A stretch of DNA of 64,000 bases, from assembly GCA_040954595.2 (NCBI GenBank), contig CM082594.2, forward strand, positions 11,226,276 through 11,290,275. Direction: 5' to 3'. This document shows, one piece after another, positions 2,552-63,516 of this stretch; position 1 is the first letter of the stretch, and every line of letters begins with the position of its first letter. The DNA comes from Balanoglossus misakiensis (lineage: Eukaryota > Animalia > Hemichordata). Under the pieces are notes generated by a model. It worked only from the letters and a program-made list of their open reading frames with translations. It did no database searches and was not told the DNA's origin. The position numbers and the translations under genes are program-made.

Positions 2552-2659
2552 TCACATGCTTCAATCAAACAGGTGTCACGTACTACACTTCTGTCTGTAC
2601 ATTTGCAGGACAGTCCCGAGGGCTCGTGAGAAAACAACAAGACTGAACACAAACCAAAA

Positions 2660-2800
2660 ATGAAGACTAGAATGTGTGTGCTCTTCTTTATAATTTCAAC
2701 CTTGTACACTGTTTTTGCCGTTCCTGTACATTCAAATGAAGAAGACGATCTGGAGAACAGGATTGCAGTGATTGTCAGAGAAGTTTTGAACATTCTTCAG
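2660..2800 (+). CDS. Gene A (amidated neuropeptide precursor, AstA-like) coding exon 1: signal peptide and acidic pro-region
   Basis: AAAAATGA start context. Translates MKTRMCVLFFIISTLYTVFA|VPVHSNEEDDLENRIAVIVREVLNILQ (basic n-region, hydrophobic core, VFA cleavage site). Phase-0 donor CAG|GTGGGT at 2801. Confidence 0.85.
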
Positions 2801-2998
2801 GTGGGTATCTTTAGTCTTTACTTATCTTAAAGTGATTCGGGGAGACAAACGATGACAAGTCAGCCCGATGCATAAATTCATTAACATAGATAGATAATAA
2901 ATTCATGCACTGATACGTGCATAGATATATAAGTTGGTACATGCCACGTGTTCACATACAAGTTTTAATTTCAGTTGTTCATTTATGTCTATATATAG

Positions 2999-3041
2999 GA
3001 AAAACAAAGACTAGCCGTCCTTGAAAGTGGAGTTACGGGAG
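2999..3041 (+). CDS. Gene A coding exon 2 (pro-region)
   Basis: Acceptor ...atgtctatatatag|GAA; 43 nt encoding EKQRLAVLESGVTG plus 1 nt; consensus donor G|GTGAGT. Phases 0 and 1 join exons 1 and 3 in frame. Confidence 0.8.
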
Positions 3042-3234
3042 GTGAGTGTAAATGAAGCTTAAAAGATGATTGAAAAAAAATGTTTTGTTAATTGCTTCTG
3101 TAAAATCAGCAGCAACATTGCCGTTTTATTTGGGTTTACTTATTTTAACACAATGTAGGATTTTAATATAAGTATGCACTTCGTTCTATGTCATTGTGTT
3201 TGTATACAAAGATCCTTTTTGACTTTTCTTTCAG

Positions 3235-3335
3235 ATGGTGAATACGTGCGTAATGGTGTTACAAGAGACGCTGAAGGGAAACGAGGCCCAGACCATGCAA
3301 AGACTTATTACCACTTTGGAGTTGGGAGGCGTTAG
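3235..3335 (+). CDS. Gene A coding exon 3: mature peptide GPDHAKTYYHFGV-amide
   Basis: Strong acceptor ttttgacttttctttcag|. Reads DGEYVRNGVTRDAEG-KR-GPDHAKTYYHFGV-G-RR-stop (TAG 3333-3335). Spliced CDS is 141+43+101=285 nt, 94 aa. Confidence 0.85.
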
Positions 3336-4976
3336 GTAATTATGTCATTAACATATATCCAACGCTGCTATTTGCAGAAAGGAAAGAGTACAGCTCTAGG
3401 TAGAAGTATGCAGAGCCTAGCTCAGCTAAACTGGCAACATTTTGGGTGGGCAGACCACTAGACATGACAATCTCCATAAAATCAAATACTGCAGTTTTGA
3501 TTTACGACACACTGAATATACTGCGCGTATACTGCTAATGGCGCCCACAAAATTGTAATTGCAAAAGCGAAATTAAGCTCTGATTTGAAATGAAGTTAAA
3601 AATGATCGCCTTTGCAATGCATAATAAAATGACACGAACAGACTCTCATCGCTGATATGATTGAATAAACTAGCTCGAAAACTTGTATGGCATATACCCT
3701 GGAGATTTAAGTGGAGCCATATGAATTTATTGCAAGCTATTACTGGAGCTTGATCCTCTTATGTGAAATGTTGTTTGTATAAATCGATCATTAAGAGTAC
3801 TACTGAGAACGTATATTACATAATAACATTATCAAGAGATCATAAGGTTTAATTATCGAGCTACAGGCAATACTGGTCACCAATCTTGGAAACGTCCTAC
3901 ACAACAATTTGCATGCGTTAATTTCTCTCGCCCACTAGAGGTTGAATTCTCTCTGGGATGAAGTGACGAACAACACAGGACTACATGTTACCTCTGAAAT
4001 ATTTCCCCTCGTCACAGAAATTCATCCACAGTGTCTAAATAAATCGTATAAGCTTCTAACTAGTGAGAATCTAAACACTTCTTTTCGGTTTCGGTAGACG
4101 TGAGAAAAATAATCTCTAATTGGTCGCCTGTTGGATTGTAGAATATACGAGTTATCCTACAGCCAGATTTCTTTCTAATTTATTTGAATATTTGATCTAT
4201 ACAGTGTTTCGTGGTGTCCCCAAAGACCTTTCATAATTGACAAGTATTGCCACACTCACTAGGGAGTATTTGCGCTTGTCACCAGTTGTGTGTCAGGATA
4301 TACTTCACCAAGTGCAATTTTTACAAACCAAATATATTGCTTGTCAACAGTGCTGGGTATTTTTAATTCGCGTGAACAGAACTTTCGAAAATGTCAAGTA
4401 CGGTCGGGGAAAAATAAGAAAACGGAAACTAGCGTCAAATTCGTTTGAAGAAATGTTGTCTCTCTCTGCATCTTGCTTCCGCGGGATGCGTTCCTATTTT
4501 CCCTTGCCATTCCCTAATGAAATATGTGGCAGAACACACACTGACATGTGAATGAGAACCTGCTTCACAAGATGCCTTCTGGCAACGTCTTTTGATTATT
4601 GTTAACTTTATGATAAAAATCAGCCAACCGCTGACATGAATACTAATATTGAAAGAGGAATACTTGTTCCTGTCTGAATAAAGAACTTTGCCCGACAGCC
4701 TATTCATGGTGTTCTATGTCATGTCTCGCATTCTCGTTGCCTGGAGATACTTTTACGGCAAAGGCGTCTATTGGCAAATGTTTTCAACTGAGCCAAGTTG
4801 GCTCCAAATTTTTATTGTTTCTCGTGAACACACAGCAAAAGTAAGTAGACCAATTTATCTGGGAAGAATGGAACCTACAAAAATCCGTAGTAGTCACACA
4901 TACATGTAGGTTTGTTAAATTGTGCACTAGTTACTGGTAGATTGATAATTTCTCTCTCTCTCTCTTTCTCATGTAG

Positions 4977-5374
4977 AACAAACCAAGCCTTTGAAGAGTT
5001 CATTTTTGTTGGAAGCGTATAGAAAAAAAGAAATATCAATTAAGAAGACGATAGCTATGTTGCTCGTTTGTTATTTGTTGACTCTTAATATCATTTGGAA
5101 CCAAGAAAAAATACATTTGATGTTTTGAAGTGATTTATTTGAATAGAAAATAATATGCAGTTGCAGCTGACATGTCTTGAATGCCGCGGCCAGCATTGCA
5201 ACATTTCTGTTTTTCATTTATGTTCAAGAAACACGATTTCAGTCAGAAAATCTTCCATGATTTATTTTCACAATTATGTCACGTTAATCATCTTTAATGA
5301 CTATATTAACCACTGTTAACAACCACGTATTGTTATTTCCATATAATTTTTGCCTGTCTTGATTTTGAAATAAA
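4977..5374 (+). other. Gene A probable non-coding terminal (3' UTR) exon
   Basis: Donor TAG|GTAATT immediately after the stop; acceptor (TC)n-tttctcatgtag| at 4951-4976; AT-rich sequence; AATAAA at 5369-5374. Confidence 0.55.
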
Positions 5375-6735
5375 TAATTGAAAGTTCACTTGTACATAAT
5401 GAACGTCTCTTTGAAATGCTCTGTAAAAGCATTCAACATGGAGGCTCTACCGGTCTTTCAAGGATAAATTCCACAACTGTCCAATCCCCATAGTTTATTC
5501 ACATGTGTAGATTTAGACACCAATAGATGTTGGCAGAAATGCAGTTTACTGAGAACTAATAAATTTATGGATCGGCAAGTAATGAAGAGACCCTGCGTGA
5601 CTTCTTAATTGCACCCGATTGTGTATTTTGCCTTCTGCATACGATGTGAATTGCTTTAATGAACGATTTTCAGCTCTGCGGCTAGGCGATCCTAACAGAA
5701 TTGAAGTCATTTGTCAAATTCCACTGCAAATATGTCACTCGGCGAATGAATGCTTATAATTGTAAGGGCAACTGTGCACGACAACTAATGCGCAGACTCG
5801 GACAAGAGATTCAACCAACCATGCCATAACATATCAAAGCCGTCAGAACAATTTCAGCTAATCAGAACATCCGCCAAAACAGAAACAGCAACATCTTTTG
5901 AATATTCACACAACTCTATACAGTGTCATACGATCGCGATGTTTTCTATGCATGAACATGACATCTTACAACGTAGGCGAATGTGGGAAAACGCAATGGT
6001 GGGATTTTAGTAATCCCTTGCTATCAACAGATGTTTCCTGAAACTTGTCTCGAAGCGTCTTTTAATTGCCCTGAAACCTAAAGTTTGAATGTGACGTATA
6101 TTACTCTGGCTGAAGCCAACGTTGCCTGCTCCTTTTGAATATCGACAGTACTAGTAACTCCTAAATGGAACTTAATGGGGGAGAGGTGTGTGAGTGTCTG
6201 GTTTACCTCAAGTCTAAATACTACTACAATTTTACAACTTTTCGGACAACTTAAAATTTAGAACATGCAAATTTTTGCCCCTGCTTTGTCCGTTAAGCGA
6301 AGTTCAGGCAAACAGTGTTAACTCACACATCAACTAGCTACTCTTCCGTCGATATTATTGATTAGTGATGCACCTGTCTTGTCTTCTCAAGTGGTTCAAA
6401 CACGTTGGCTGCATACACTTTTCACTCTCAATCTATTCTAACGGAACTCGGGCATGTCACCTCCCTGGGACGTGAACTTTCTGACTCAAAACAAGGTTCA
6501 ACCTGAGAGAGACAAGATTCACAGTGAACTATTCGGCCGTCTTTATAAAAAGGGCAGTAGTTGTACCACCTGATACTTTTTTTAAGTTTCTTAACATTGT
6601 ACCATCTACCATTCCTTTTTTCTATTTCCAGATCATGTTGAAATTAAATTATTCCTCTCGACAAGATTACTGTGTATGTGTGTATTGTACGTATGTTTAC
6701 TGACAACCGAATTTGAGAAAAATTCACGTTGGAGG

Positions 6736-6757
6736 GTGTGTGTGTGTGTGTGTGTGT
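6736..6757. repeat. (GT)n microsatellite
   Basis: About 11 GT units read directly. Confidence 0.95.
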
Positions 6758-12156: not shown

Positions 12157-12220
12157 TCTATCTATCTGTCTGTCTGTATGCCTACCTATCTTTCTATCTA
12201 TCTATCTGCCTGTCCGTCTG
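12157..12220. repeat. Degenerate (TCTA/TCTG)n tetranucleotide repeat
   Basis: tctatctatctgtctgtctgtatgcctacctatctttctatctatctatctgcctgtccgtctg. Confidence 0.85.
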
Positions 12221-14275: not shown

Positions 14276-14336
14276 CACACATACATATACACACATACAT
14301 ACATGCATACTGACAGACAGACAGACACACACTCAC
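14276..14336. repeat. Mixed (CATA)/(CAGA)/(CA) simple repeat
   Basis: cacacatacatatacacacatacatacatgcatactgacagacagacagacacacactcac. Confidence 0.8.
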
Positions 14337-15820: not shown

Positions 15821-17270
15821 GCATTCGCGCATTCGACATGTTATTCGAATTAATTACCATCATGCAGAGTCGCCACAGAATCATGTTAATCGAAAGAGTA
15901 AAAATTATGAAAAGCGAAAATGTTGACCTTGGCCCCACCAACACAGGAAGGCTGAGGGTCCACATTCCTTTCTGATGTGACTAGGTTTTTTGTCCTGTAT
16001 GATTTTTTCGTTTCATATAATTGGTGCAGAATATTATTGTTTTTTCTTTTGGAAAAAGTGAGAATAGAGTCTGCATGTTTAGAGGCTTGACGGAGAAAAT
16101 TTCCTGTCAGACACCCAGAACTTTGTTGTAGACAAACGTCTGCTCACAAACTTTAAAGGAAAAACAACCTCCCCTGACTGATGATACATTCTGTCCGAAT
16201 TTTGTTTGAATAGTCGGTCATGCCCATGATAATGGATATTAACCCAAATCCTGACATTTCAGCAGGGTTGGGTATATTCATCGCTTCTGCATTAGAAAGC
16301 AGTGATCTTATCGATTGCAAGAACAGCGGAACAACACAGTTCTTATCTTGTGAAACACCCAAAGGCTGATTTAACATGGGTTAGAGATCACTGAACTAGG
16401 GATTACTGATGTAATAACTGTGTTTGTAACCATGGATTCCTCGTCTTTTCAGGTGAGACTAGAAAAAACCCATGGCCTTGGAAGTTTTTTCTCTCAGGGT
16501 TGACAAGTTGCTGATCATGCGTAGACTGTTGCCGTTACATGCCACGGGGCATAACTGAGCCAAGTTCAGTGGTCCAGTGGTCCTCACGTCATTTGCAATA
16601 ACTTCTGCTTTAATTTCGAACTGTTGGTAGAGCGGTATTTGTTTAATATTCCGGTTTTCATATCGTTCATATTCCATTCTGGGTTCAACGGGTCGGTGTA
16701 AAGGCAGATAATCAAGTTATTATCAAGGCCAGGCCTACGCCTACGGAGTACCCCGTCTCTCTTATGTCCATGATCCAATCCAACTATCTACCCCACCCAT
16801 GTTTGCATTTTTGCTGCATTTTTGTTCACTCCTATCACTCCTATAGCCTCTATCAATTAATAAAACATCAGATCCTACAAGGTGAAATCATATACCACAC
16901 TATCTTTCCCTTGGAACTGGATTACTTCATTCGAACATATAACTTGCCTCTGAAGAATCATGGAATTTTCGCACAAAATATCACGTTCTGGGTTATTGTA
17001 ATTGAACGCAGGCTTCAGAGTAATTTTATTCATACGTTATAATATAACTGGAGAGCTTGCAAGCTGTACATTACACTGAATAAACATTAGCATGTGAGGA
17101 AACTGGTATTGTATTACAATAATTACATACTTATTCTATCTTACCGGCCCCGGGATGTGATTAAGGAGGGGAAACTGATATGTTCTCATCAGAAGCCCCT
17201 TTGAAATGTGCTTTCGAAGTCCTTGTAGATGTGGAAGTGAGCTTTTTAAGTAGTATGTCTTCGGACTTCA

Positions 17271-17590
17271 TCATTTAAAATTTATGATTTGACTTAGGCT
17301 CTTTTGCGGATAGAGAGAGACCTGAACAGTAGCAACGTCGGATAGTTGAAGTTAACGATCATGTTCACCAACAGACATGCACACATCTGTCGACAAACAC
17401 CTGTATGGAAACACATTTTCATTCACATGTGTACATGTGTCATTTAAAATTAATGATTTGAGTAGGCTCTTTTGCAGACACAGCAAATAAGAGAGACGTG
17501 AACAGTACAGTAGCAACTTCGGAAGATTGAAGTTAACACTCATGTTCACCCACACATCTGTTGATACACATTTTCCTTCACGTGTGTTAC
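17271..17590. repeat. Diverged tandem duplication, about 170-bp unit x2
   Basis: Both copies read tcatttaaaatt.atgatttga..taggctcttttgc...gagagac.tgaacagta...gcaac.tcgga...ttgaagttaac..tcatgttcacc...cacatctgt...acacattttc.ttcac; starts at about 17271 and 17440. Confidence 0.9.

Positions 17591-18324: not shown

Positions 18325-18329
<5 letters not shown>

Positions 18330-18361
<32 letters not shown>
18330..18361. repeat. (GA)n microsatellite
   Basis: About 16 AG units read directly. Confidence 0.95.
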
Positions 18362-18364
<3 letters not shown>

Positions 18365-28084: not shown

Positions 28085-28201
28085 TGCGTCACATTGGTGA
28101 ACCGATTTGAATATAATGACCTAATGAGCTGAAATGGACCAACCCCGCGTATCTTCCCTGGAATCGTTAATTTATCGATCTTCTCTCCCCACCTTATAAA
28201 A
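28085..28201 (+). promoter_or_regulatory. Putative promoter of gene B
   Basis: CRE/AP-1-like TGCGTCA at 28085-28091; inverted CCAAT (ATTGG) at 28093-28097; canonical TATAAAA at 28195-28201. Confidence 0.6.
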
Positions 28202-28224
28202 GTCGGAATTCCGCGCCAGTACAG

Positions 28225-28350
28225 GAGTTGAGGGAAACATCACGCTGCAGGACCCCGCGAAAGATAGCATCGTAACGGTCACGCCAACTTCGCCGATCAT
28301 CTTTGTTCAAAGACTAAAACTGAGTTGACAGAGAGATAGCTGGGAGACAG
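28225..28350 (+). other. Gene B probable non-coding first exon (5' UTR); start approximate
   Basis: Begins about 25-30 nt after TATAAAA, contains no ATG, and ends at a strong donor CAG|GTGAGC (28351). The matching acceptor is ttttcttctacag| at 31799. Confidence 0.6.
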
Positions 28351-31300: not shown

Positions 31301-31849
31301 CGTTAAAACACAGCTCATCAAGGACAGATTGTTTGCACAGTCCAAGCAAGTGCTTTCAAGATCTTAATGGCAATTCCGGCTTTTAACGCAAAATTACTTC
31401 CTCAATTCTGGAGTATGTGAGGGTGTAGTTTTTCACGCGCACTCACGGCAACCAGCGCTTTGCAGAACTCAATCCTTATTTGTCCATTATGCTCATTATC
31501 TTTCCAATGTGAGAAAAAATGATTTTTATTTTTCTCTGATGTGCAAGAAATGGTTAATGTTACCGAGACCACTTTGCAGCAACTAAATGCGGCATCTATC
31601 AATACTTGTCAGATAGTACCTTCATGTACTCACCATCATATGGGTCAAATATATCACAAGTGTATGTTAAAATATACTTCTGTGATTTCTAGGTGTATAA
31701 AAGGAGGTTACATTGTATAGATGCATATTTGAAGGGTTTCCAACTGGAAATCCTGCATGTAAATGGTGATACCTGATATTCTACGCTTTTCTTCTACAGC
31801 TTAAACAACAGCATTTTATACCTTAAGACACACAAACTCCTTGCTCAAG

Positions 31850-32122
31850 ATGCGCCAAGTAACAATGCTTCTGGCCGGCTTCTTTGCCGTGTGCCTGCTC
31901 GTACAGACCGTGAGTGGAACTGCAGCCAGGTCGGGGAAACTCCATTCATACCAGAACTCTGGATTCAGTATGTTCGGCAAGAGGACCCCAGATTACCCAG
32001 CTCCAGCGATGGAGATTGAAGAGCTGCTCACAAGATCTATTGGAAACCTCTTAAGCCTCAAGAAACTCTTCGACGACGTTATAAATGCAAACAGCATGCC
32101 AGAAAAAGATATTCAAGAATAA
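31850..32122 (+). CDS. Gene B: amidated neuropeptide precursor (SALMFamide/kisspeptin-like), 90 aa, single coding exon 31800-32127
   Basis: True ATG is at 31850 (CAAGATGC); the ORF track starts at an upstream TTG. MRQVTMLLAGFFAVCLLVQTVSG (signal) | TAARSGKLHSYQNSGFSMF-G-KR | acidic C-terminal pro-peptide TPDYPAPAMEIEELLTRSIGNLLSLKKLFDDVINANSMPEKDIQE. Flanked by an acceptor at 31798-99 and donor AAG|GTATTG at 32128. Confidence 0.92.
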   Translation: MRQVTMLLAGFFAVCLLVQTVSGTAARSGKLHSYQNSGFSMFGKRTPDYPAPAMEIEELLTRSIGNLLSLKKLFDDVINANSMPEKDIQE

Positions 32123-34771
32123 AAAAGGTATTGTTTGTACGAATGCATGCTCTATAATCAGAAATTAAGACTTCAAAAATAATGTCTGTCTATCTCTTTG
32201 TCTGTCCATCCATATATCTGTATGTATGTATGCACCTACGTACGTATATGTACTAACCCGATTTTGTCCGAGCTGCACTGATCATTATGATCATCATCAC
32301 ATGTTTGTCACAAAGCATTAAAAGGGAAATTTAACAAAAGAAGACATATCGCTATATTTGAACCGTTGATTAAAGTTTGAATAATCATGTGTCAGGGGGA
32401 GATACAGAAACATCTTTATCACCAACGTGTGTTGACATATGTACATCGATGCACCTGGCCGCTCTAATTCTGTATAAACTATATTAAAGGGTACATAAGT
32501 GTGTTAAAAGTCGGGAAATAATCAATATTTGTCTGTGGCAACATTTGACATTTCCAGAGAAGGGCATGGTGTTGATTTGTGGAGGATATCGATTTTCTAG
32601 TCACTGTATATTTCACACAATATGAAGCTTATAAACACCACACTTCTTACAAAAACATCAATGGCTTCTACATTTAGAGATCTAAGGCAGCGTAGTCAGC
32701 AAAGACAGCAAATTCTCAAGCAGGATGTTAGTCAAAATGTGTTAGAAAAGTCGCTAGGAAATCTTTATTAGTACTACCCCAGAAAGAAGACAAGCTTCCT
32801 GTCAAACCACCTTAGTTTTTTTTTAGGAAAGAAGCTTTGTCTGTGTGCTGATAGTTAGCCTGAAAAAAAAATGTTCTCTGTCAAAATTTTTGAATTGCCA
32901 CCAAAATGTCATGGTAACACGTAAAAGCCACAAAATGTGTTATTTTAACGTTCACAGACGTAACAAGCTGACGAACTCGATGATCTTCATTGAAATTAAA
33001 TTGTCATCCCTCAAAGAGAGATACACTTGGGAATGGTTCGTGGGAGTGCATTAGTGAACCATAGCATTGTCATGTATTAAACGGTTCATGACATGGCGAA
33101 ACACTGTGCAAAATATAAAATAGAAAAACCGCATTTGCCAAATTATCAACGGTCTGTCAGCGGCATAATTGCAGCCTTTCCTCCTGACTACCGCAACGAC
33201 GAACAACTTCACTGGTAAAATTCAGTCGATTCAAACACTGACAGTGCTTCAAATTACACTTCCATCATTCTCGCGTTAATGCCAACAGTAAATAAACGCT
33301 CCGCATCAATTTGTCAAACGTAATTCAATTGTCACATGTTCAATGAAGTGAGAACAGTCACAGATGGCGAATTTCCTGTCTTCAAATGTATTTCCAAGCA
33401 GTGAAAACACCTTCTATAATCTTCATTTCAAGCATCAATTAACAATCAGTTTAAAGTGCGACTCACAAAATTGATGTCCGGATTAACTCGCAATATTTAC
33501 CTTAGCTTTACCCACCTTTTGTGACATCATGAATGCGTCATTTTCCAGCAAACAATTTTGTCAAATATATAGATTTGATTTTAATCTTTCCATTTTACAA
33601 ATGACTGGAGGGGACTGGTTCACACGGAATTTCTGAAAGCCCACAGTTGTAAGATCTAGTCTAGACAAATTAATTCCCTCACTTCAACTATATTTTGATG
33701 AATTTGAGAACGTGAGCACAAGGGGTTACAGACAACCCAAATATCCCTTCACTATTATAACATGAACCAGCGGGATCAGAACTGAATATTTATAAACCAA
33801 CAGAACCTGTGCTTCATATGCTAGATATTATAGGTGTCTCACAAAGGTGTGCAAAAACTGACGTTTTAAATATTTAATGTTGATACATTAAGCACGGTAA
33901 CGTGACTACATGTCAAACAAAGTTTTGCAAATATCACAAACCAATGTATAATACGAATGTAAGGAAGGACTCTTCTATGCTATTTTCATCATTCTATTGT
34001 ACTTGCTTGAATTTCTTGTATTTGCTATATGCCATTGAAAAGAGATGTTCGTCTTTGAGGTGCCGACTGCACGCGCGTTCTTCACTGCCAGCGGAAGAAT
34101 TAGTCGTCAGGGCGAAATAAGTGAAGCCAATCTGCACGAAACTTTTTGGATCTTTCAGCGAGCGTGGTATTTTGAGCTTACTTGGGGAAAATCAAATGAC
34201 TATCCGGGAGTAAAAGACTCTAAAACTCTTCTAATTTTAATTCCAAGCGAGGCCGAATACGTGAATTGTGGCTGTTTGAGACACCATTAGACTCCAACCA
34301 ATCGCCTTGTAGACTGCCGCAGCGGGCAGACGACACTATTAAACGGCATAGTGGGTACGGCGTTTTCAGATTGAAAAGTCTTGTAGTTAGCTTTGCCAAT
34401 AATAGCGAGGGTCCCCTGTGAAACAACTGCAAAGAAAGGTTGATATTAGCTGACGGCTACCTACGTGTGGTGAATGAAGACATATACGCAACTATCGATG
34501 ATGATTATTATCCAACAGTCTTCGATCACTGTTTCAGTATATCCTTATGGACAGACACACCACGAGTGAATAATTCTGGTCAACTTTGGTAATTCTTTCA
34601 TCACCTGTCTCTGTTTGCTTTACAAGGACATAGTCAGGAAGCCGGTGTTGACCAAAGAGTGACGTGAAAAGCCATTTCCACTGTCAGATATAAAGCACGA
34701 ATGTTCATGAATTTTTTTTCGTTTTAGTGAGAGAGCACCATCTGATTTTCCCTTCTTTTTTTTCTCTACAG

Positions 34772-35154
34772 ATAATTATCATCAGTGGTTTGCTGTTTCA
34801 CCAGATGTCTTTGTTTTGACTGCTGCATGCTGATCACCATATGCTAATCACTTCTTCGGTTTGATTACACCACAAGTCAATGGCAGCCCTCTCCTCTTGA
34901 CCAGAAGGTCACGGAAGGGTACATCGAATGGACCGTTCGCGGGAGACCTTTTCATTGTGTGATCACCGTATCATCACAACGACAGAGCACCAAGAATGAT
35001 AATACACAGTACAAAGGACTCCGCTTCACAATTGGAATACAGTTCATTTCTTTACCGACGCGAACACTTCATTTATCACATTTTTGTTGTTTTGTTCAAA
35101 TTGTAATTTTTCCACCTCTAGTGTACATTAGAGAATTTGGCTGTATACAATAAA
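34772..35154 (+). other. Gene B probable non-coding terminal (3' UTR) exon
   Basis: Very strong acceptor ttttcccttctttttttttctctacag| ending at 34771; AATAAA at 35149-35154. Confidence 0.6.
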
Positions 35155-38100
35155 TCCCTATGGCTTCATGTACATAAAATAAGCCACTGCGAGTGTTAAC
35201 TGTTAGTTGTTGATGTGTCATTGATTGCCCATGGGCATGCAACTGAGTTCAAGTAGAATGAATGTTTTCAAAAGTCGCCGGTTTGTCGGATGTGAGAGTC
35301 AAGCGACCTGAGCGACTCCTTCCAACTGTCGGGACAGTTTAAATCTGAAAGATAAGAGTAATGTTAGTGCTGTCTATTTTAAAAGTGGAAGACAACCTTA
35401 CACTTTATTCTCTAACACTTTCCAGTGGATCAGAGTTTGAAAAAATATTTGAGGCTGGAACTTTATGATATATTACTGAAACAGGGAGCATACTATTTTA
35501 AAATTCAAAATGGCCAATTGTTTTACCAACGATCATAGTACTTTCAGTCTTTTAAAAATTGCACTGTATCAGAAAAAAAATGGCTTCTAATTTGGCTTTG
35601 ATCACTCATTTTGTTCGTAAAGACTACAACTGTCTCCATTAACAACTTTGAGTCTATATCGGTGAAGCAATCTTGTAAACCAGAATATAATATTAGCTAT
35701 ACTAAAGATAAACAGAATTTCATCTCATAACAGTTAAAGGTATAATGGGAACGACTTTTGAGATAAAATCCGAGAGCGTGCTGAATCAGATACGCGCTTC
35801 TAGCGCACCGGCAGTGAATTTTTACGGCAACATTTGTCTCCAGTGCAATAAAAACCCAGTCTCTTTCAATTTGGAGCAAATTGCTAGAAACACCCAAAGC
35901 AGGCTGCTGGCGAACATTTGTCCGTAATTGCGGTTTTAAACGAAATCATGTAAACTTGATGTCTTCATTCTCGGAAAAGAGAACTTTTTATAGACTTGAG
36001 TTTATCCATGAAATATTTACGACCAGTTTACTGGCTCGAAGGAACGGTATTCTAAATTTCATCAATGATTAAATACACGGGGCGAGAATGTCTTTTCATT
36101 AAACGTTCCACAGAAGTGTATTTTATGGCAGAGATTAAGAGAAACATATTTGTTGATGATGTGTCATTAAACTGAGTTAAAACATCAATTGATGAACGTC
36201 ACAACATTTGCAGATTGAAATTTGGAATGAATTCAACTGGCTTTTATGAACATGCACATGTACTGGCACTGAACATAAAGGATCCTTCATCTCTGTTTCT
36301 TCACGTAAAAATATAATCACGCTACGAAGAGGAAAAACACAGAACGCGACAACACAAGTTATTTTGAAGGGTGTTGTCAAGGATTTGTCAATGTTCATTT
36401 GACATTTTAGATAAATCTTACTTAATCCGAGTTGGAGCAACGATCTGATAGATTGATGCCCACGGCTAAACGCAACACTGGAAAAGGCTGAGTGGATAAT
36501 TTATTTTTGGAAAGTACATTATTTAACGTTTTAGCGGGCTAATAATCTCACTCTATCACTCCAGGCATTAAACTTCTCCTACAAGAAATCACGCCTGCTA
36601 GGTGTAGTCTCTAGGTGACCTGAGGCCTGTTATGGTGAAGCACGTCGCTGAGGTTATTCGGAAAGCATAACGACAGAGATCTGACCTGCACAATCAATAT
36701 AACCTTTGCCCTGCTTAGGCTCACCCAACAACATCGTCGTGTCGATAAAGTTTAAACTGAACCGAGTAGATGACGATTTTTATCGACTTTTAAACCTGAG
36801 AAGTAACTGATTCTAACTATGTTCTATTTACGACAAGTCTTGCAAGACTGTAGAGGTTATAGCTACTCAATTTTGAAGTTATTTCTGGTAAAAAGCCACC
36901 GCTGCTTTACTTTCCGTGAAACGTTTTTCATCCCCTTTTCTACTGATTTCTCATCCTGGTTCTGTCTGTATCACTGACTAAAAAGAATCCATACTATCTA
37001 GTTATGTTAATATCACAACATCGATACCAATATTTCTTTGTTTGAATGTAAGATTTATGAGAAGCTATAGGTGATCAATCTATTTCCCGGAAGTGGTAAA
37101 TGCAAACATGCATCAAAGTCAACACCAGATATTCGTAATGGACGTGTCCCATGACAAGTGAAGAATTACTTCCTCAGTTACAGCTGAAACAGAAAGTGTT
37201 TCCGTTAACACAGCTTGTACTTGAAAGCGAATTGCCTGAAGACGTCCTTGCTTACTCATTCCCAGTGAATGAAAAAGACCTGAACTTAGTATGGAGCCCT
37301 TAGGAAACTCGTTAAATGAGTTTTCCAGATCCCTTGTGTATTTGAAACAAATAAGTAGAAAATAATACAACAGAAAAGGAAATGTTATTTCTGCCTTGTC
37401 GAAAACATCTCTGTCGAGGTTCTCCTTTGAATATCAGAAAGTCGCATTGTTTTCAAATGTTGTGTGTACTTTGTGTGTGTATACATGGACAGAGAAAACT
37501 GATCATTCCTACTCACTGTGGTATATATCGTAAGTGAACATACAAAAATGAATGTGTATTTGTGTTCGCATATTGGAAAGCTAACATGGAAAGTTAGAAT
37601 TCATTCAGCACTCACAAGAAATAGGCTTGATAAAGTTTTTTTTAACAACAGTGCCACAATATTCTTTACATATGTTGCAGAACTCAATAACGATTGAAAC
37701 AGATAATCCTGACCTGAAGGTTTGAAGCGACATGCCATGAACATCGTTGTTCGCGTTTATATCTGCTCCGCATTCGGGAGTCTTGCTGATTCATTTTATA
37801 ACGACATTTTAGGCCAATATTGTACAACGACATTTATAAGCCAATTTAAGGCAGCAGGATTTTCTCGTCAAAATATATTGCCAAGGATAAATTTACTGAG
37901 CAGTACGGCTGTCGTAAATGTGCTAAGAAATGGCGGCAAGGTGTAAATATGCGAACGTGAGCAAACCCGATTGGTGGCTCTCAGCTCACACTCTAAATAT
38001 AAAGTACATGCACGTTTGTTTGAAGAGAAAGAGAGAGCGAGAAAAATACTAAACACGAATACGTGTTAATAGCGAGGCGAGTCTTGAGCATACTGATTTG

Positions 38101-41100: not shown

Positions 41101-41328
41101 TTATGTGATCACATCATGGAACACAACTTTCTCTTTTGGATTATCTGTCTAGTAATTTCAAGGTGTACACGTACAACCCTGAAAAAGGACCATAAGGAAA
41201 TGAAGACGCAGCAAGATAGCTAATTGGGAATCACAAGGTCACTTAAGACAAATGTTAAGTATGATCTTACGCACCAGCTGAGTGTGTGTGACATGGCGTG
41301 ATGTTAGAAGAGGCGCTAAAAATAACGT

Positions 41329-41623
41329 TTATCATGTGGAACATGGGAATAGTGGGTTTGGTCAATGGCCGACAATGCGCAATGTTAATGATCGACATGC
41401 ACTCGTCGGCCCAGCAGAGCATGCATTGACCATCTGCCAACTTGAATGCAATGAAGTTCGTAGCAGCGACCTCAATCCAGTCCAAAACGTATCAGTAGCT
41501 ACTGAGGCATATATATTGATAAAAGGTGTATCATGTGAAAATACACGTGGGGATAGTGCACCTGGTCAATGGCTGACAACGCACAATGCCAGCACTCCCA
41601 AGAAAGCTTTGACCAACTGCCAA
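41329..41623. repeat. Diverged direct repeat, about 200-bp period, 2 copies
   Basis: tatcatgtg.aa...ggg.atagtg...tggtcaatggc.gacaa.gc.caatg...ttgacca.ctgccaa at about 41329-41440 and 41529-41623. Confidence 0.75.
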
Positions 41624-44537
41624 ATATAATGAAGGATGGGTACACATTTAGCCCCCCGCCTCTTATATAATTTCGTAGTCGCTGTCGATTCGTCTATACT
41701 AAATGATTAAACTTTTGACTGTTGTGGGTATGTTTATATCATTTTGATACTGAAATAGGTAAATGCGTATTCTATAACTTAATTTATGGGCAAAAAACTT
41801 AAGTTTACAGCCTCAGTTGAATTTTGATTTTACAATGACACCTAAAATTCAGAGCATGTACCAATCCCATCTATCGACAGTCCCAGTCAAATAGGCGTAA
41901 GTAGAATAATGGTGAACATTCTTTATCGTCAGCCCAACTTACTTAAATACTGCTGGACCACATCAACATCATTCATCAGTAGTTTTTTACACTTAGAGAT
42001 CATTTGCACAAACCACCAGACGGAGAAATGTGATGTGCTTTGTGACTGTGAAAGTTACGTGAACTCGAAAACAAAATGCTGATAAGGAAATTTATAAGTT
42101 CATGTCTTGCCAGCTGAGTGAGGTATTTATTATAAGAGAATTGTAAAAAAATCCATCACGTGCAGAATGTTGAGAAGTTCAGCTTGAAGCATCGAGATCA
42201 TGAGGACCTTCGTCTGATCAGGAAGCACTTAATGTTTCCACCTCAGTATGGATCAGGTGTTGTGTTACAACACGTACAGCGCATGAGCTAAACGACATCT
42301 CCACGTGCTCATGGTGATGTACAATGAAGTGGACTTCCAAAGTGTGAAACACTAGAATGCAAACGTGACCCCCTAAATCTCAAATTTTCAAAGTTCTCAT
42401 TGCTGGTCATATTCACAGAAAGATTCTGTCACATGTTAACAGCAAGGTTTGTGACAAATCAGACAGCATGTTGAACATTTCGTGCTGAAAGCGTTGGGTG
42501 AGGTCACGTGTTTTGACATGGTGATGGATCCCGTACCCATGTGACTGTGCATGTGAATTGACAGTGAGAATACCGCTGTTATTCTCGCACCTTCTATTTA
42601 GATATAATTGGCAGCCATTTTTTATCTTCGCGTCATTTTTGATCCCTGTTTTGAACAGCAATTGTTAATCGATTATACAAGCCAAATGATAAAATGACAA
42701 TCGTGTCTAAAACAGCAAGAACGTATGTCATCGTTATTACCACTTTTAGCAAAAAAAGTAAAATTACAACATCAATAAAAATAACATTATCAATTTGCTT
42801 GAAAAAGGATTTGCTAGAAAAAGGATCAACAAAACCTTCTATCAAACATTAAACATAGAGCACTTCTGAAATCAAGCGACAATACACTAAATGTTGTCCC
42901 CTTATACCTCCTGACTTTAATATTCGGTCAGAGAGTAGGCATCAGACGGCAAGAAAGAAAACCTTTCGCTAGCAGCGAAAAATACAAATTAAAGTTTTAG
43001 GTTGCCACAGGATACGGTGCAAACCAGAATTCTTTATTAGAGGGGATTTATGCCAAGATTTGTCATTTTATAAATCATAATCCTGACATTCAGAAGAAAT
43101 CCCTTTAAGTGGCGCAAATCCGAATGGCGGGATATAATTGCCCGTCAGGCATGGTAATTTAGAAAGCAAGCTGCCACGTTTCCTTGTATAGAATCAGCGT
43201 TATTTCTTTACAATTCCGGTAACAATGCACTTTATCGCAATATGAGAATTTAAGAAAAAAATTCCTATCTTATATTTTCTGTATAGTCTTGATGTGTGGA
43301 GAAATTAACGAGCACTTTACTGGTTCAGATTTCATACACTTTCTGGAGTAGTTCTGCGATTTTTGAGTGGTTATTTCCGATCGGGAAAGAGAGCGGGAAT
43401 ATTTACTTCCTGAACGAATTCCAGATTTCATATAAAAATAGTGTTTTACCATTAATGTATCACCATCTGTAACAAATCCAGTTAATAAAGTACCAAATGT
43501 CGGAAGAATTTCATTTCTTCCTCATATTCTGCTTTTTCATGTATTTCATTTGTAGCATTATATAAGACGGATTTTGTGGACATCAGTTGCGGCTCAGTTG
43601 TACTGTTCCACTTAGAAACGATTCTACAGCGAACACGGCACTTATCAATAGGAGGTAAAGGGTTTCTAATCCGTGGATATTGACATAATGACGTCATGTT
43701 TGCCTCCTTCAAGACCAAGATCACTATTGAGAGGTTGTATCCTTTTGAAAAACGTTCGATATGCCACACACTCCATTTTCTCTGGGAGTGAAAATTGGTT
43801 AAGTAACTCTCCTAAGGTCGAATGAATTAAGTGCACATTTTGTAAAAGCAATTCTTCCTGGGAAGTACAGTTCATTGTCTCGAAGTACATCTATATTCCA
43901 AAAAATTCACATTGAGAGTCCCAAAAATGTCTATTACACATCGCTAAATTGTGTATCTTTGCTGTGGTTGAAAAGAGCAGACCAGGCTGATTTGCGATAC
44001 ACTTTCTACTTTCAGAAAATACATATGGTAGGTAACACAAGCGTTTACCTATCTGTACTGTCACTATTTGGGTTTGCTTTGAAGCTAATAACTCGTGCTT
44101 AGGAACAAACAAGCGCAATAAATCGTGGGTCCATTACTTAATTAAAATAATAGCTCAGAGAATAAAGTGAAGGCTGCTACTCTCGCCCACATGTGGGATA
44201 ACGTACGTATTGTCTTATTAGAGCTGTCAAAATATCACTGAGTTTAGAGGGAGTCTACAAATGACGCAATATGACACAGTGGAGAACTCAGATGTTCCGC
44301 TCGCCCACACTATTCAGAATTGCGAAATTTCTCTGACAAGATCCACACAGAACAAAAAGATATCAGGAAATAAATCCCCCTTATTAAATCAATGTATCCT
44401 GGTAAAACATAGGAATAGTCAAAAACAGTAAAAGATATAAAGTTAATTAGTATAAATCACAATTCACACTTCCAGTGTGTCAAATTTACTTTTTATGTGA
44501 GATACAAGAATTTGAAATGATATACGTTTTTTTCCTG

Positions 44538-44541
44538 AGAG

Positions 44542-44592
<51 letters not shown>

Positions 44593-44604
44593 GGGGGTGG
44601 GGGT
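44538..44604. repeat. (GA)n microsatellite followed by a G-run
   Basis: More than 20 GA units, then ggtggggggggggtgggggtgg. Confidence 0.95.
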
Positions 44605-45102
44605 GGAGAAGAGATACAGACAGATGTTGAGTAAGTTGTTAATTAGCATTTGCACAATATGCTACAGTCTTGGTAATAACACTTCAACGACCAAAGAAGT
44701 TGTAGTTGGTGGATCCACGTGACTCTGGGCAGGACCCGCATCTAATTAACAGTCGTGGGATCCCACTGCTTACGACAGCAAATGTTGTTAGCGAATGAGG
44801 GAGAGGCACGAAGCTCTTATGCAGCACTCGGCATTAACAAAATACCCAGGAAGTTTACGGCTTAGCAGAAACAACTCCATTAAGTATCTCTACTTAAAGG
44901 CCTGAAACACCTGTGACCATTGAGACAGTTGTCATTTGGACTTGCGAGAGGGAACAGTACACGTATCGTGTGAGACGGAAAAGGAAGGAAACACAGGACT
45001 TAAAAAAAAGGACGTCTTGAGAAGATTACAAAATCGAAGTTCGTGTGAAAGAAGTGATAGTTTGGAAGACGGAATATCTTCCATTAAGTGACTTGGTTGA
45101 AG

Positions 45103-45115
45103 ATGGCTAAAACAG
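45103..45115 (+). CDS. Gene C coding exon 1 (MAKT plus 1 nt)
   Basis: GAAGATGG Kozak context; donor CAG|GTACGT at 45116; phase 1 matches the exon 2 frame (G+AC = Asp). Confidence 0.7.
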
Positions 45116-45317
45116 GTACGTACTTTAACAGGAATTTGACATTTTCGACGTTTCTCAAAACTTTGGCAAGGGCAGAACTTGCAATTAGCCTCCATGTAAA
45201 CGTCTTCACACATTTATACAAACCGGATACATATTTGCTATGTTCATGTAAAGACCAAATGTCATTTTAAAAATGTGGACACACTCCAATGTAATATTGT
45301 TCCATTTTCCCTGGCAG

Positions 45318-45566
45318 ACTGTCACCACATACTCCTGTTTATAGTGCTACAACTTATAATACTACATGCAGCTACGGCGTTTCTATACAGAAATCAAGTC
45401 ATACGACTGGGCAAGAAGTCCCCACCATACTCGTACCAACCAAAGAGCCCCTTTACTTTCTTCGACACCGATGGAGACGGACAATTATCACAAGACGAAT
45501 ATCAACGTGTCCCACAATTTAAACTCACGGCAATGTTAGATTCATTTCAGGATGCAGACCTAGACG
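45318..45566 (+). CDS. Gene C coding exon 2: signal peptide, candidate amidated decapeptide, EF-hand 1 and start of EF-hand 2
   Basis: Acceptor ccattttccctggcag|. Reads (D)CHHILLFIVLQLIILHAATA|FLYRNQVIRL-G-KK-SPPYSYQPKSPFTFF-DTDGDGQLSQDE-YQRVPQFKLTAMLDSFQDA-DLD(G). Donor G|GTATGT at 45567. Confidence 0.9.
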
Positions 45567-46194
45567 GTATGTGTTGTGTTTTTAATAATGATTTTCTTAC
45601 ACCATCTGGAAAAAAAACCCCAGCTCATTCTTATACCGGTACATTATATTGATATTTGAGGTCAGGGTATATAATTCATTTGCCTGCATGAAAAAAAGTT
45701 AAACTTGTTCATACTTTCTCTTAGAAGACAATCAATCAGTATGCGCATGTAGCTGCGGATACCAAAAGCACAAAGGAATATCTTGAAATATGTAACCAAC
45801 CCTGATCAATTTTGCCTGTTTGTAAATTTGATGGCACATCATTGTTCCACAGAATCATCGATCTTTTATTGATTTTCTGTACAGCTGCCTTATAGGTTAT
45901 TAAATCTGGTCTCTTCTATGCATCTCCGGAATAATCAATAGCAAGATTACTGTCACACTACAATGGGATATTAACATATGGCTTTAAAAGGTGCTCAGGT
46001 TGACAAAATTGATTCTCGAGGAAGCACTAGCGTTTAATCTTACGACAGCTATAACCCTGTATTAGATATTCTAAAGCAGAACCTTTGTTGAAAATTTTAT
46101 AGTACCTAATATACACCCACCATTTTTGAACCCACCTGTGTAGCCGAATGTGCCAGATTTCTCATTCTGAAAACTAAACATTCATAAGTTACTT

Positions 46195-46287
46195 TTAACC
46201 CTTTCAACCCCATTTCCCTGAATAGAGGACCGACTTCACCATAAAGAACAATGGGTTTGGACCAAACCATGGTGATGAAAGGGTTAA
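46195..46287. mobile_element. Short TTAA-flanked MITE (piggyBac-like termini), copy 1
   Basis: TTAA-CCCTTTCA...TGAAAGGG-TTAA terminal inverted repeats; homologous to the reverse complement of 50383-50472. Confidence 0.75.
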
Positions 46288-49200
46288 ATTGACATGATAG
46301 TAGGAAAGATTTATGTTTACATTCTGTCTTCATTGTGCTGACAATTTATTGTTCGGAATGACATGGCTTAAGACCCATTAGTAAAGATTTGCTGGGTAAG
46401 CGCTCTGACTCCTCGAAAGACACTTATAAGCGATAAATCACGGCATATTAACAAAATAATGGGGGTTCATTTGCAGAGAGAAGGATTCTGTGCTCTTTTC
46501 AATGATTTATGACTGTCCATTTTCATGTTTGTGGCAAAGGCATACCTACTCCACTTAAATCAAATCTTGATATTTCCACGACTTCAGAAATGGCACCCAT
46601 GGGAAGATGCAAGGCTGAACATTGAGACGCGATCATTTCAGTCTGAAAAGAACTTTCTGTAATTCGAATCGCTTCCTTCGTAAAGCATTAACTGTTTGAA
46701 CAATAAAGCAGCGCGGGGTAGGGCATGCCATGAGATTTTGACCACTTCAATACATGAACGCACGAGCGCTAGAAATGGTCAAAATTGGGAGGTCTACCGC
46801 TCTCTGGGTTGTTTTATTTGATGTTATATTTTACCAGTCTATTGAAACAGTGTATAAAGCACGTTTTCAAATAAATTTCGATAGTTTCCCAACTGATGTT
46901 CAAGCCCAGTTTTTGAGGCTTGAGAGCAAGGCAGTAAAGACGTCGGTGCTATGTTTTTTCCCTTCAAAATCTAGTCAACTACCACCGAGAAGTCATAATT
47001 ATATGCATACATAACTAATGAGCTGCTCTTACATTTAATAAACTAAACCGTTTGCGCGTACGAAATGTGATGACACAAGACACTGCATAAATGAAGTGCA
47101 AATTGAACAGATATCGTAAAATCGTAGGATTTGCCAGCTTTGTCTGAGCGGGTATGTCTCCGAATTTAATATCTGAGTTTCATTAATGTACAAATCGATT
47201 ACAAACAAAAAAGTTGAAAAATAAATGTTCTACACAGTGTCCAGACAAACAAGACAACTAAACGTTATTCACCATAAAACCTTCATGAGAGACGGTTGCC
47301 CTGCATGCAGTTTTAGAGTGCAGCAAAATGGGCATTTGTCATCAAATATAATTCCGCTAGGATGTGTGTGCATTTTCTCGGTGCCGACGATTAGGCGGAA
47401 AATAATCTTCGTGCGAAGAAACTGCTTTTAATAGATACTCGGTTTGACTTTTCCAAAACCCATAATGGCTAAAGACTCTCTCTCCAATATTTGAGGCTAT
47501 CCGTTCAGAACAAGACAATGGCACAACATAATAAATAAACAGGATAGGCTGTTTTTTGCGTTACTATTGGGAGGTAGCAACTCTGACCTTTGGCCTGAAT
47601 ACAAAAAGTAGCAATCTTTTGGATGGATCATAGTCACGCAAGGAAATGACTACGCGTCTTCGATAGGATGTGTTAGTACTGTGAAATGCATTGACATATT
47701 GACAGAAGGCAGGAAGAATACTGCCATCATTTTATCTTTTATGAAGACCATTGAAACATATCATAAACATAAGACATGAACGATAAAGATATCTATGAAA
47801 CGCATCATCAATTCCCTTCAAACGCTTCTCGACTTATATCATGGGTTTAGATGTGTTATTTTCATTGAGTAGTTCCCTAAATCATTAAAATTTGAATCAC
47901 ACAAGCCAACTGAAATAAATGTCAGGAATAGAACCACCACAAAACGATAGTTCAAAAAGGCATTACTTGGGATAAACGAGTTGTAAGCGACTTACAAAAC
48001 TTCATACCCATGCCTAAGCTTATAGATTCGTAACTCTTTCATAACCTCAACTATTGACAACCGCGACGTGTTAAGCGTGCCACCTCATATAACGCCAATG
48101 CTGTCGCTAAACCGTACATGAAGCAAACCCTCTCTGGTGAAATGCTTAAAATTCTGTCGATTTTTGCAGGCTACTTTGTGCTTATTTTTGTTTTGATCGC
48201 TTTAAAAGTCTTGTTGTCTGTGATAACAAAGTAATCACAGAGGCGTGAATTTACCATCTGGACACGAAAGGCTCTTTTAAAATGGCGTTAATGTTTCACA
48301 GATCACTGTAAATCATGAATAAGCATGCAGGGCTTGACGAGGTTAAACTTTGTCACTTTAAACTTTAACATGAGTCACGTGCAGTCAACATGGCTTACTT
48401 TGATATTTAGATAAATGAAATAAAGCAAATAATTGCACGTTGGCTGTTTTAGTTGCTTTTTGTATAATATACTGGACAACAATTGGTGAAAGCAATACAT
48501 ACAGGATAAATGTTCCATTCGTGAGTCCCAGTACGGCTAGCCTACCATCCAGAGCAACTCCATTAACAAACCACATTTCATATACAAATCTAACTTCTCC
48601 TCAAATCCCCAGGTGAACTGTGACTCCATGAATCACACATTACTTGTACACAAAATTTAACATTATGATTTACATGGTAACATACACTTATGGTTAACAG
48701 TCATATACCTTCCAGGAGAAACGTTAGTGCGTCATTAGAGAGCATGAATCAAATGACATCTTAGTTCTTTCGGCAGATCCGCAGGGATCTCTGTTTTTCC
48801 CTATCCTGTTTATTATAGACATAAACGATTCACCTATAAAACATACAACTATGTACCTGTCAGCTGACAATTCCAATTTCTCCAGACAAATTGAAGCTGA
48901 CTCTTCATGTTAGCAAATAAGGATGCTCAGAGTTAGGCACTGTTGCAAATTCCAGGAAATCAAACATGATCATCTAGTTCCTTTCATAGGTCTTGGAGAT
49001 CTGTACTAATCCATATCCTGCTGTTGAGTCAAAGAAGAATTCTGTTTCTGCCAGGCAAATTTTATGATAGTGACACATATAACAATATTTCTCTTAAGTG
49101 TATGTTCGAGCCCATAAGCTTGGGTAAGGGGGTATTCTGTCCTAAGTCCCAAAATAGGGCACGATAGTGTATAGTACGTTACACTGAACCTGTTACACCA

Positions 49201-50382
49201 AAACTATTATACAACTACTGACACCCTATTGTTTTATAATCACAGGCGAATATTGTAAAGTATGTCGCTGTGTACATTCTCTGTGGATTTTGTCTAATGA
49301 AAGCTATCGCTGTTAGCACTGACAGCTGCCTATCAACTTCAAAGTCAGATTATCCAGTCGGAATACAGCATACTTTCTTCTCCTTGTTTATCTTTAAAGG
49401 ATTGGTAGATACCTTACCCAGAAATGTGGATTGAAAACGAATTTCTAGGTTAAACCCATTTTCGACGGATAATGGCTAAAAAGAGATTGGATGGTACATC
49501 CCTACGATTTGTGCGTTTCCTCCATTTGTATCTTAGCTCAAATCCCATGTGAACCAAGGTCTCTGACATTTTCACCAAATTGCAGATATTGTGTTACTGC
49601 AGCAGTCAATAGTGAGTCCAATTTCACCATCCACTCTACATTGAAATATTTTATAATTGCTGTAGTAATCGTTTTATTTCGTTGCAAGTATACTGACCAT
49701 TTCCCAACTAAGCCATATAATGTACTGAATTTTCGTGTTCCAATAAACAGACCGCATAGTTGCCCCGACGGATTTTTTAGTTTTCACAGAAAGTGTTGTA
49801 GAACCATTAATAGACATCTTCCTGCTTGCCTCGTATTTTATTCAGTGCATTTGTCACATGCTTAGAAAGAGAATATCTCCTTGAAATGTATCGTCATGGT
49901 AACGAGTTAAAGCTCTCGAAGCTAGAATTGGCACATAAAATTGAGATGCCCTCTTCATTAATTAGCAAAGATGGGCAGATGTGTTTCTTTGTGAAACGTT
50001 TTATTATTCCTTTATAGCTTCATGCGAGTAAATCGTCGTGTCACGTTCTGCAGACTTTTTAAAGGAGTGTTAAACGGTCTAGAAGGAAGCCATTCACATA
50101 GCTCGCCTTGAGCGTCAACTTTGTAAAAACACAAGCGAGGAAGTGTGACAATATGCCAGTGTATTCCGCCAGTTATTATATTCACTTAGTTCACCCCTTC
50201 AATAAAGATTTACAATTACGTAATCTGAGCGCAGATTTTGTAGTTTCCAGTGTTAACATTTTATCACGTCTGTCTTTTGTGGTCAATTTGCAAGGCAGGA
50301 TGTTAAGATTTCAACTTAAACGGCGCATATGTACTAGGTGGGTATCATAATGAGAATTGAGCTCCAAGAAAAGCAGGAAACC

Positions 50383-50472
50383 TTAACTCTTTTACCACTA
50401 TGGTTCTTTCCAAACCCCTTGTTTTCTGTAAGCCTGGACATTTACACAGGGAACTGGGGATGAAAGGGTTAA
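50383..50472. mobile_element. Short TTAA-flanked MITE, copy 2 (opposite orientation)
   Basis: TTAA-CTCTTTTA...TGAAAGGG-TTAA; the internal atggtt...tccaaaccc.ttgtt...cagggaa.tgggg aligns with the reverse complement of copy 1. Confidence 0.75.
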
Positions 50473-50795
50473 CATAAGTCAATATTTAATATTAACCACA
50501 CTCTCTTGCCATCTCTTCTAATAAATACTGTTAAATATTCAAAGAGTCTTGCCACTTTCGCTAGTAATAAAGTAACACATAAGAGTGTCTTGTGTGAGGT
50601 TTAAAGGCACAGACTTAATATAACATAAGGTCTGAATATCGGGTTCTGCTACATTGTTATTTTAAAATTTACTAAAGTATGAAGCTTAACATAGATCACT
50701 GTTATATCATACTGGTATTTTCTGGTGATGTTTTAATAATTCTTACATGATTTTTAATTGAACGACTTTTTAACTTTGTTTCATTTCGATTACAG

Positions 50796-50887
50796 GTGAC
50801 GGACTTGTCAATACCTTGGAGTTCTTTTCAAAGATGGCCAAAGTTCGATACGCGGTGCAAGAGGACACGCAGAATATTTCCAGCTAG
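50796..50887 (+). CDS. Gene C coding exon 3: completes EF-hand 2
   Basis: Acceptor ctttgtttcatttcgattacag|. Phase 1 gives (G)DGLVNTLE-FFSKMAKVRYAVQEDTQNISS-stop, completing the loop DLDGDGLVNTLE. AATAAA at 50924-50929. Spliced CDS is 13+249+92=354 nt, 117 aa. Confidence 0.88.
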
Positions 50888-63432: not shown

Positions 63433-63516
63433 CCCGGTACAGTTTCCCAACACCAGTCTTTTACAAGCAAGTCTGTCGAAGATACTGTTACGCACTATCG
63501 GCAAGTTTCCGGCATA

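Follow-up and report, generated by a model that had tools for sequence, protein, structure and literature searches.

Three small predicted amidated-peptide precursor genes in a hemichordate genomic stretch, with candidate kisspeptin-type and allatostatin-A-type members

Analysis of a 64,000-nt stretch of the Balanoglossus misakiensis genome (contig CM082594.2, positions 11,226,276 to 11,290,275; hereafter the window, in whose numbering all positions are given) points to three small genes for secreted proteins—here termed A, B and C—each of which would yield one amidated peptide. Gene B is likely of kisspeptin type, gene A likely belongs to the same allatostatin-A/kisspeptin group and gene C likely to another family, a combined reading to which we assign a probability of roughly 45%. 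A and B are best regarded as real candidate ligands of a known kind and apparently undescribed, with about even odds on their family assignments.

All three genes were found on the plus strand at the positions proposed for them from the bare sequence, with canonical GT-AG introns in A and C. Each joins a signal-like N-terminus (called by a hydropathy rule and visual judgement) to a Gly-basic site, bearing out the sequence-only reading of three plus-strand amidated-peptide precursors. That reading had also held these to be the only convincing genes in 64 kb. In agreement, the gene C frame alone passed the cut-off in a Pfam scan of the 150 longest of 207 stop-free frames (at least 62 amino acids), a frame-based scan that genes built solely from small exons may escape. 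An Rfam scan of the window returned zero matches, and no extra copies of A, B or C were found inside it. With a G+C content of 38% and few repeats, the DNA is of animal type; the host, presumed from the sequence to be an invertebrate deuterostome, is placed among the hemichordates by a Ptychodera flava orthologue of gene C, which would make it a probable ptychoderid acorn worm, akin to but likely distinct from the sequenced P. flava. Three genes share one orientation by chance in 1 of 4 cases, so co-orientation was given no weight.

Gene B encodes 90 amino acids in one coding exon, whose frame is flanked by an acceptor at 31799 and a donor at 32128. Its predicted peptide, of uncertain N-terminus, ends YQNSGFSMF, so that the F-S-M-F end is preceded by Asn in position –6 and Tyr in position –8. 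Two of three rules for chordate kisspeptins (PMC4062910) hold for it: Phe at –3 fits the demand for Phe/Trp at –3 or –4, and Asn at –6 that for Asn at –5 or –6. Compared ungapped with amphioxus BfKP1, its last nine residues gave p = 0.012 with the final Phe excluded; for the SALMFamides S2 and S1, p was 0.005 and 0.019, respectively. These and the other peptide p-values are uncorrected, the main panel comprising 21 comparisons with SIFamide, galanin, spexin and GnRH peptides outside it. Further motifs (the gene A helix described below, gene B against BfKP1) were selected visually among 21 precursors and scored as short motifs only, so that after correction none is significant alone. SALMFamides are defined by L-x-F or F-x-F motifs, copy number and gene structure (PMC9400282). 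Gene B was rejected as a strict SALMFamide, given its S-M-F-amide end, its single peptide copy and the lack of a coding intron and hence of a phase 0 intron. The sequence-only label "kisspeptin/SALMFamide-like" therefore stands for its kisspeptin half (the F-S-M-F end, the BfKP1 match) and fails for a SALMFamide in the strict sense. Overall, these short and partly eye-picked matches are suggestive of a gene closer to amphioxus kisspeptins than to SALMFamides.

Gene A (2660–3335) encodes 94 amino acids in three coding exons. Omission of exon 2 breaks the frame, an acceptor at 2608 lies 51 bases 5′ of the ATG, and a splice donor directly follows the stop codon. The predicted peptide GPDHAKTYYHFGV comprises 13 residues ending YHFGV, followed by GRR and the stop. 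Relative to the arthropod allatostatin-A end [Y/F]xFGL-amide (as given in the available parts of PMC6188537 and PMC4489612), four of five positions fit and Val replaces Leu; all three allatostatin-A peptides tried resembled it (p = 0.003–0.007). The layout, in turn, is that of kisspeptin precursors, with a C-terminal peptide and a phase 1 intron ahead of its exon, plus an extra phase 0 intron (phases were compared, positions unaligned). Behind the gene A signal peptide lies a helix similar to the corresponding one in a sea-cucumber L-type SALMFamide precursor (p = 0.007 when the hydrophobic pattern is kept; a second motif tried gave p = 0.06). By eye, Y-H-x-G-[L/V] recurs in starfish L-type SALMFamides two residues before their end, the same offset as that of the FGL common to allatostatin-A and kisspeptin. 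The gene A peptide gave no scoring match to four kisspeptin/SALMFamide peptides; it contains zero Asn, matches none of KISS1, KISS2 and BfKP1 and lacks the Asn core and Phe-amide of kisspeptins. The precursor holds one peptide copy, at odds with the multi-copy allatostatin-A type. Of the earlier assignment as allatostatin-A/galanin-like, the end motif is consistent with the first part, whereas no galanin likeness was seen and no Pfam family matched. Taken together, the features of gene A are suggestive of an allatostatin-A-type end set within a kisspeptin-type precursor layout.

Several results weigh against these assignments. Gene B breaks the third, chordate-derived kisspeptin rule—Asn at –7 or –8—by having Gln at –7, where chordate kisspeptins have their first Asn, and Tyr at –8. 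It gave p = 0.19 and 0.35 against vertebrate KISS1 and KISS2 and, ungapped, p = 0.38 against ArKP2.2, and it shows none of the L-x-F, F-x-F or G-x(x)-F ends. Its peptide directly follows the signal peptide, far from the C-terminus, and the phase 1 intron of kisspeptin genes is missing, there being no coding intron, as in starfish KPP2. In the language-model Atlas, its top family is flagged as probably wrong (3 of the 10 best agree) and its recognition value of 2264 falls below the bar of 2300. No gene B homologue was found among proteins of 49–158 amino acids at E up to 10, and all three matches in a library of 1.84 billion were rejected (a 3390-residue leucine-rich-repeat protein, a repetitive 643-residue frame and a 694-residue coiled-coil protein); metagenome contigs held no homologue and the PDB only two entries at E 0.86. 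For gene A, none was detected among proteins of 71–2000 amino acids with a query of exon 3 plus eight flanking intron codons, exon 1 not being searched, and none in the PDB. No Pfam family matched A or B at E up to 10, the Galanin, GMAP and Spexin models included. These homologues are missing although the P. flava gene C protein sits in the same collection, in which counterparts of A and B may be unannotated, fast-evolving or absent. A and B moreover show no detectable likeness to one another (DNA, p = 0.78; protein, p = 0.085), a result that is neutral as to an ancient duplication, nor was protein similarity detected for any other pair among the three genes. Finally, short peptide motifs often converge, according to the available text of PMC6188537.

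Alternatively, A and B might be real neuropeptide precursors of other families, adjacent by accident: B a SIFamide/NPFF-GnIH ligand or a galanin-, spexin- or GnRH-type peptide, A a hemichordate-specific peptide with a convergent FGV end. We consider this a genuine, if doubtful, possibility. Nine of the ten Atlas entries shown for gene B are named peptide-hormone precursors, led by spexin-2 (0.93) and galanin (0.92). Its layout of a peptide after the signal peptide, GKR and a long tail groups it there with spexin, galanin, neuromedin B, GnRH, PrRP and corazonin, and no kisspeptin entry is among those shown. Gene B also has the Phe-amide end expected of a SIFamide/NPFF-GnIH peptide (the scoring panel held no SIFamide). 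Arthropod SIFamide ends S-I-F, of which the S-M-F end of gene B is reminiscent, and a ligand of SIFamide/NPFF type is thus a serious rival for this gene. In S. kowalevskii, a GnIH/NPFF/SIFamide-type receptor was without a known ligand in 2014 (PMC4062910). The lack of detectable similarity between A and B likewise agrees with separate origins. On the other hand, several positions of the gene B peptide agree with the end of amphioxus kisspeptins, gene A carries three traits of the group (end motif, phase 1 layout and pro-helix), and two unrelated neuropeptide genes adjoining each other would be somewhat unusual.

Gene C encodes 117 amino acids in three coding exons (45103–50887). Its model is confirmed because a P. 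flava protein of the same length (RefSeq XP_070536172.1) matches it across all three exons, with 100 of 117 residues identical (85%). Peptide, GKK and linker are identical at 25 of 25 positions, compared to 75 of 92 elsewhere. About half of the protein (residues 51–100) is an EF-hand pair with two canonical 12-residue loops: exon 2 passes the Pfam EF-hand_5 cut-off, the P. flava protein shows two EF-hand stretches (E 7e-12), and calmodulin matches lie near E 1e-8. The signal peptide, peptide and GKK had been recognized from the sequence, the EF-hand pair had not, and a place in the allatostatin-A/kisspeptin family was not supported for an EF-hand protein that matches 0 of ten reference peptides. 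Gene C shows no tie to that family, was removed from the claim of an array and likely belongs to another family. A pleurin/PRX-amide identity was rejected, as the peptide ends in I-R-L-amide rather than P-R-X-amide. In the Atlas, gene C lies nearest to an uncharacterised mollusc family (0.86) and to allatotropin precursors (0.85), which below the bar of 0.9 are leads only. A conserved C-terminal domain has been reported as common to allatotropin and hemichordate orexin precursors. Gene C can best be understood as a precursor of an amidated peptide, conserved and unnamed, with a putative calcium-binding pro-piece.

A non-neural function for the three genes, and for C in particular, seems improbable; on this view the secreted peptides would be epidermal, mucus or antimicrobial ones, and the EF-hand pair would serve as a calcium-binding pro-piece. 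The gene C peptide is short, basic and hydrophobic, and mollusc EF-hand proteins occur in the Atlas clusters closest to it; a C-terminal EF-hand is also present in mussel mytimycin precursors. Against this, the second and third Atlas entries for gene C are the allatotropin precursors, gene B falls among precursors of neuropeptides, and a neuropeptide gene containing an EF-hand region is known from a snail, going by PMC8398477 and the title of the original paper.

Still less probable, in our view, is that C alone is a real gene and that A and B are dead ones or frames that arose by chance, for all that the searched protein collections lack homologues of either. Among 200 copies of the window simulated with a fourth-order Markov model, a single-exon pattern like that of gene B arose in 2, a spliced pattern like that of gene A in 3 and both together in 0. 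The filters were set after the genes had been seen, so these figures—from a test that left out gene C—are optimistic. Both frames are intact, each has an acceptor some 50 bases 5′ of its ATG and a donor at the stop codon or a few bases beyond it, and the language model reads gene B as a peptide precursor.

The hypothesis of an ancestral tandem array builds on two pieces of background, both of which could be traced. Origin of vertebrate SPX, GAL and KISS by local duplication is published, as speculation (PMC9174643), and a paper confirms that SALMFamides act on kisspeptin-type receptors. In addition, the available part of PMC4489612 reports shared synteny between allatostatin-A and KISS/GAL gene regions. 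Elsewhere, starfish KPP1 and KPP2 are >5 megabases apart, and two SALMFamide genes lie >13 megabases from each other on another chromosome (PMC9400282). The amphioxus precursors BfKPP1 and BfKPP3 have consecutive accessions (XP_002608257 and XP_002608256; PMC9400282 Additional file 13), which suggests adjacent kisspeptin genes and a precedent for lineage-specific tandem pairs. A bolder reading is unlikely: gene B would be the missing hemichordate kisspeptin and gene A an allatostatin-A precursor, the first from a deuterostome, both side by side as a trace of the allatostatin-A/kisspeptin ligand duplication, with gene A retaining a kisspeptin-type layout and a SALMFamide-type pro-helix about its allatostatin-A-type peptide. 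That all three genes form one tandem array, already present in the bilaterian ancestor of the allatostatin-A, galanin and kisspeptin genes and retained since, would suit their position as neighbours without a further gene detected in between, the SPX/GAL/KISS proposal and the synteny just mentioned, but has a very slim chance given the EF-hand half and unmatched peptide of gene C, the dispersed starfish genes, the differing intron patterns and the lack of pairwise protein similarity.

Under the favoured reading, with B as a kisspeptin-type and A as an allatostatin-A/kisspeptin-group precursor, known prohormone chemistry would have the signal peptide removed, a convertase cleave at KR, RR or KK, a carboxypeptidase trim the basic residues and PAM amidate the product. 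The predicted products are GPDHAKTYYHFGV-amide from gene A, a peptide ending in LHSYQNSGFSMF-amide from gene B and FLYRNQVIRL-amide from gene C. In line with this, hemichordate neurons express prohormone-processing enzymes, as stated in the available sections of PMC10508912 and bioRxiv 10.64898/2026.04.13.718258. Judged by motif and layout, the gene B peptide would act on a kisspeptin-type G-protein-coupled receptor and that of gene A on an allatostatin-A-type or kisspeptin-type receptor. The neighbourhood of A and B would likely stem from a local duplication, early bilaterian or hemichordate in age, and the EF-hand pair of gene C might be left in the secretory granule as a calcium-binding pro-piece.

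The features of the three genes are collected in Table 1. Among 1654 YAG sites, the acceptor of the candidate 3′ exon of gene B is joint most pyrimidine-rich, and that of gene A (18 of 20 pyrimidines) is in the top 5.

Table 1. Coding exons and candidate non-coding features of genes A, B and C (window positions).
Feature	Position	Strand	Details
Gene A coding exon 1	2660..2800	+	Signal peptide (about residues 1–20), acidic/amphipathic pro-region; phase 0 intron next
Gene A coding exon 2	2999..3041	+	14 codons, phase 1 intron next; predicted model
Gene A coding exon 3	3235..3335	+	KR 3279–3284; predicted peptide GPDHAKTYYHFGV 3285–3323; GRR; stop
Gene A candidate non-coding 3′ exon	4977..5100 (end uncertain)	+	Inferred from acceptor 4976
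Gene B candidate TATA box (28195) and non-coding first exon	28195..28350	+	Inferred from sequence; donor 28351
Gene B coding exon	31850..32122	+	Signal peptide; predicted peptide (R)SGKLHSYQNSGFSMF 31928–31975; GKR 31976–31984; 45-residue C-terminal region
Gene B candidate non-coding 3′ exon	34772..35160	+	Inferred; acceptor 34771, AATAAA near 35149
Gene C coding exon 1	45103..45115	+	Four codons, phase 1 intron next; N-terminus same in P. flava protein
Gene C coding exon 2	45318..45566	+	Signal peptide; predicted peptide FLYRNQVIRL 45380–45409; GKK 45410–45418; EF-hand 1 loop from 45464; EF-hand 2 loop start
Gene C coding exon 3	50796..50887	+	Remainder of EF-hand 2 and tail; AATAAA at 50924

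A and B have an untranslated layout in common (2609–3341, 31800–32133): the acceptor lies 51 bases ahead of the ATG in A and 50 in B, and the donor is 0 bases beyond the stop codon in A and 5 in B. This layout may reflect shared descent or a habit of small secreted genes. The likeness of their 5′ untranslated parts (p = 0.05) is not relied on. In all three genes, a small residue and Pro follow G-K-[R/K] (GKR-GPD, 3276–3296; GKR-TPD, 31976–31996; GKK-SPP, 45410–45430); the GKR-GPD site of gene A would lead to amidation of the preceding pro-fragment as well. A bombesin-type identity was rejected for A, B and C, each peptide lying within one exon, as opposed to the phase 1 intron inside the peptide sequence described in the available part of PMC12002301.

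Over the long stretches 3336–28194 and 50950–64000, neither coding sequence nor a known RNA family was detected. A Pfam Orexin match at 15889–16143 (minus strand; E 0.0066), below the cut-off and with neither signal peptide nor cleavage site, was judged to be chance. The window further contains a 34-base tandem repeat (3.1 copies, 2107–2210) upstream of gene A, two AG/GA microsatellites (18330–18361 and 44537–44585), two diverged local direct duplications (~75% alike; 17271–17554 and 60805–61191) and, within the second intron of gene C, an inverted pair (46195–46287 with 50383–50472). The duplications and the inverted pair are likely remains of mobile elements.

Hemichordate kisspeptin-type ligands were still undiscovered in February 2026, according to the accessible portion of PMC13020265, and an allatostatin-A-type receptor has been reported in S. 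kowalevskii (available part of PMC4489612). As far as these two sources can be followed, orphan receptors of the group do exist in hemichordates, as the sequence-only reading had supposed. In the partly available literature searched in full text, we found no hemichordate kisspeptin, SALMFamide, allatostatin-A or SIFamide precursor, and the A, B and C peptides are absent from the named S. kowalevskii peptides in the available parts of PMC10508912 and its supplements. Genes A and B thus put forward two definite short peptides for hemichordate kisspeptin-, allatostatin-A- and SIFamide/NPFF-type receptors, and gene B would fill a named gap whether it proves to be of kisspeptin or of SIFamide/NPFF type. 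If a true allatostatin-A, gene A would link this protostome family with the kisspeptin/SALMFamide group. Gene C contributes a further peptide precursor, conserved and unnamed, that carries an EF-hand pair.

Among known systems, amphioxus offers the closest parallels to gene B: three of its six kisspeptins end W-S-x-F and a fourth F-S-L-H (PMC9400282 Additional file 13), compared to F-S-M-F. BfKP1, BfKP3, BfKP4.1 and BfKP4.2 are alike with it in the aromatic-Ser-x-Phe-amide end and the Asn-Ser core, and BfKP1 also in Tyr at –8. With ArKP2.2, it has His-x-aromatic-Gln..Ser-Gly in common when gaps are allowed, and with the starfish KPP2 gene the single coding exon; unlike KP2 peptides, it is one residue longer between Gly and the last Phe, and its peptide adjoins the signal peptide. 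Vertebrate spexin, galanin, GnRH and neuromedin B are similar to gene B in layout and language-model features, without a Pfam or sequence match. The SALMFamides S1 and S2 share Asn-Ser(-Gly) and Phe-amide with gene B, and L-type SALMFamides share Y-H-x-G-[L/V], the post-signal helix and a phase 0 first intron with gene A, whereas A and B are both single-copy and devoid of L-x-F or F-x-F ends, and B of an intron. Arthropod allatostatin-A precursors contain four or more peptides, in contrast to the single one at the end of the gene A precursor; kisspeptin and KPP1 genes, like gene A, have the peptide last and a phase 1 intron before its exon. Compared to pleurin and allatotropin, gene C differs in its I-R-L-amide and two canonical EF-hand loops, and no sequence match was shown. 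In bivalves, nemerteans and brachiopods, pleurin occurs as a single copy behind the signal peptide, as far as the available source text goes, and its orthologue in a snail, the HCS2/pleurin gene (available part of PMC8398477), is a peptide precursor with an EF-hand region, as is gene C, in which a signal peptide is followed by a single short, predicted amidated peptide and then by EF-hand sequence.

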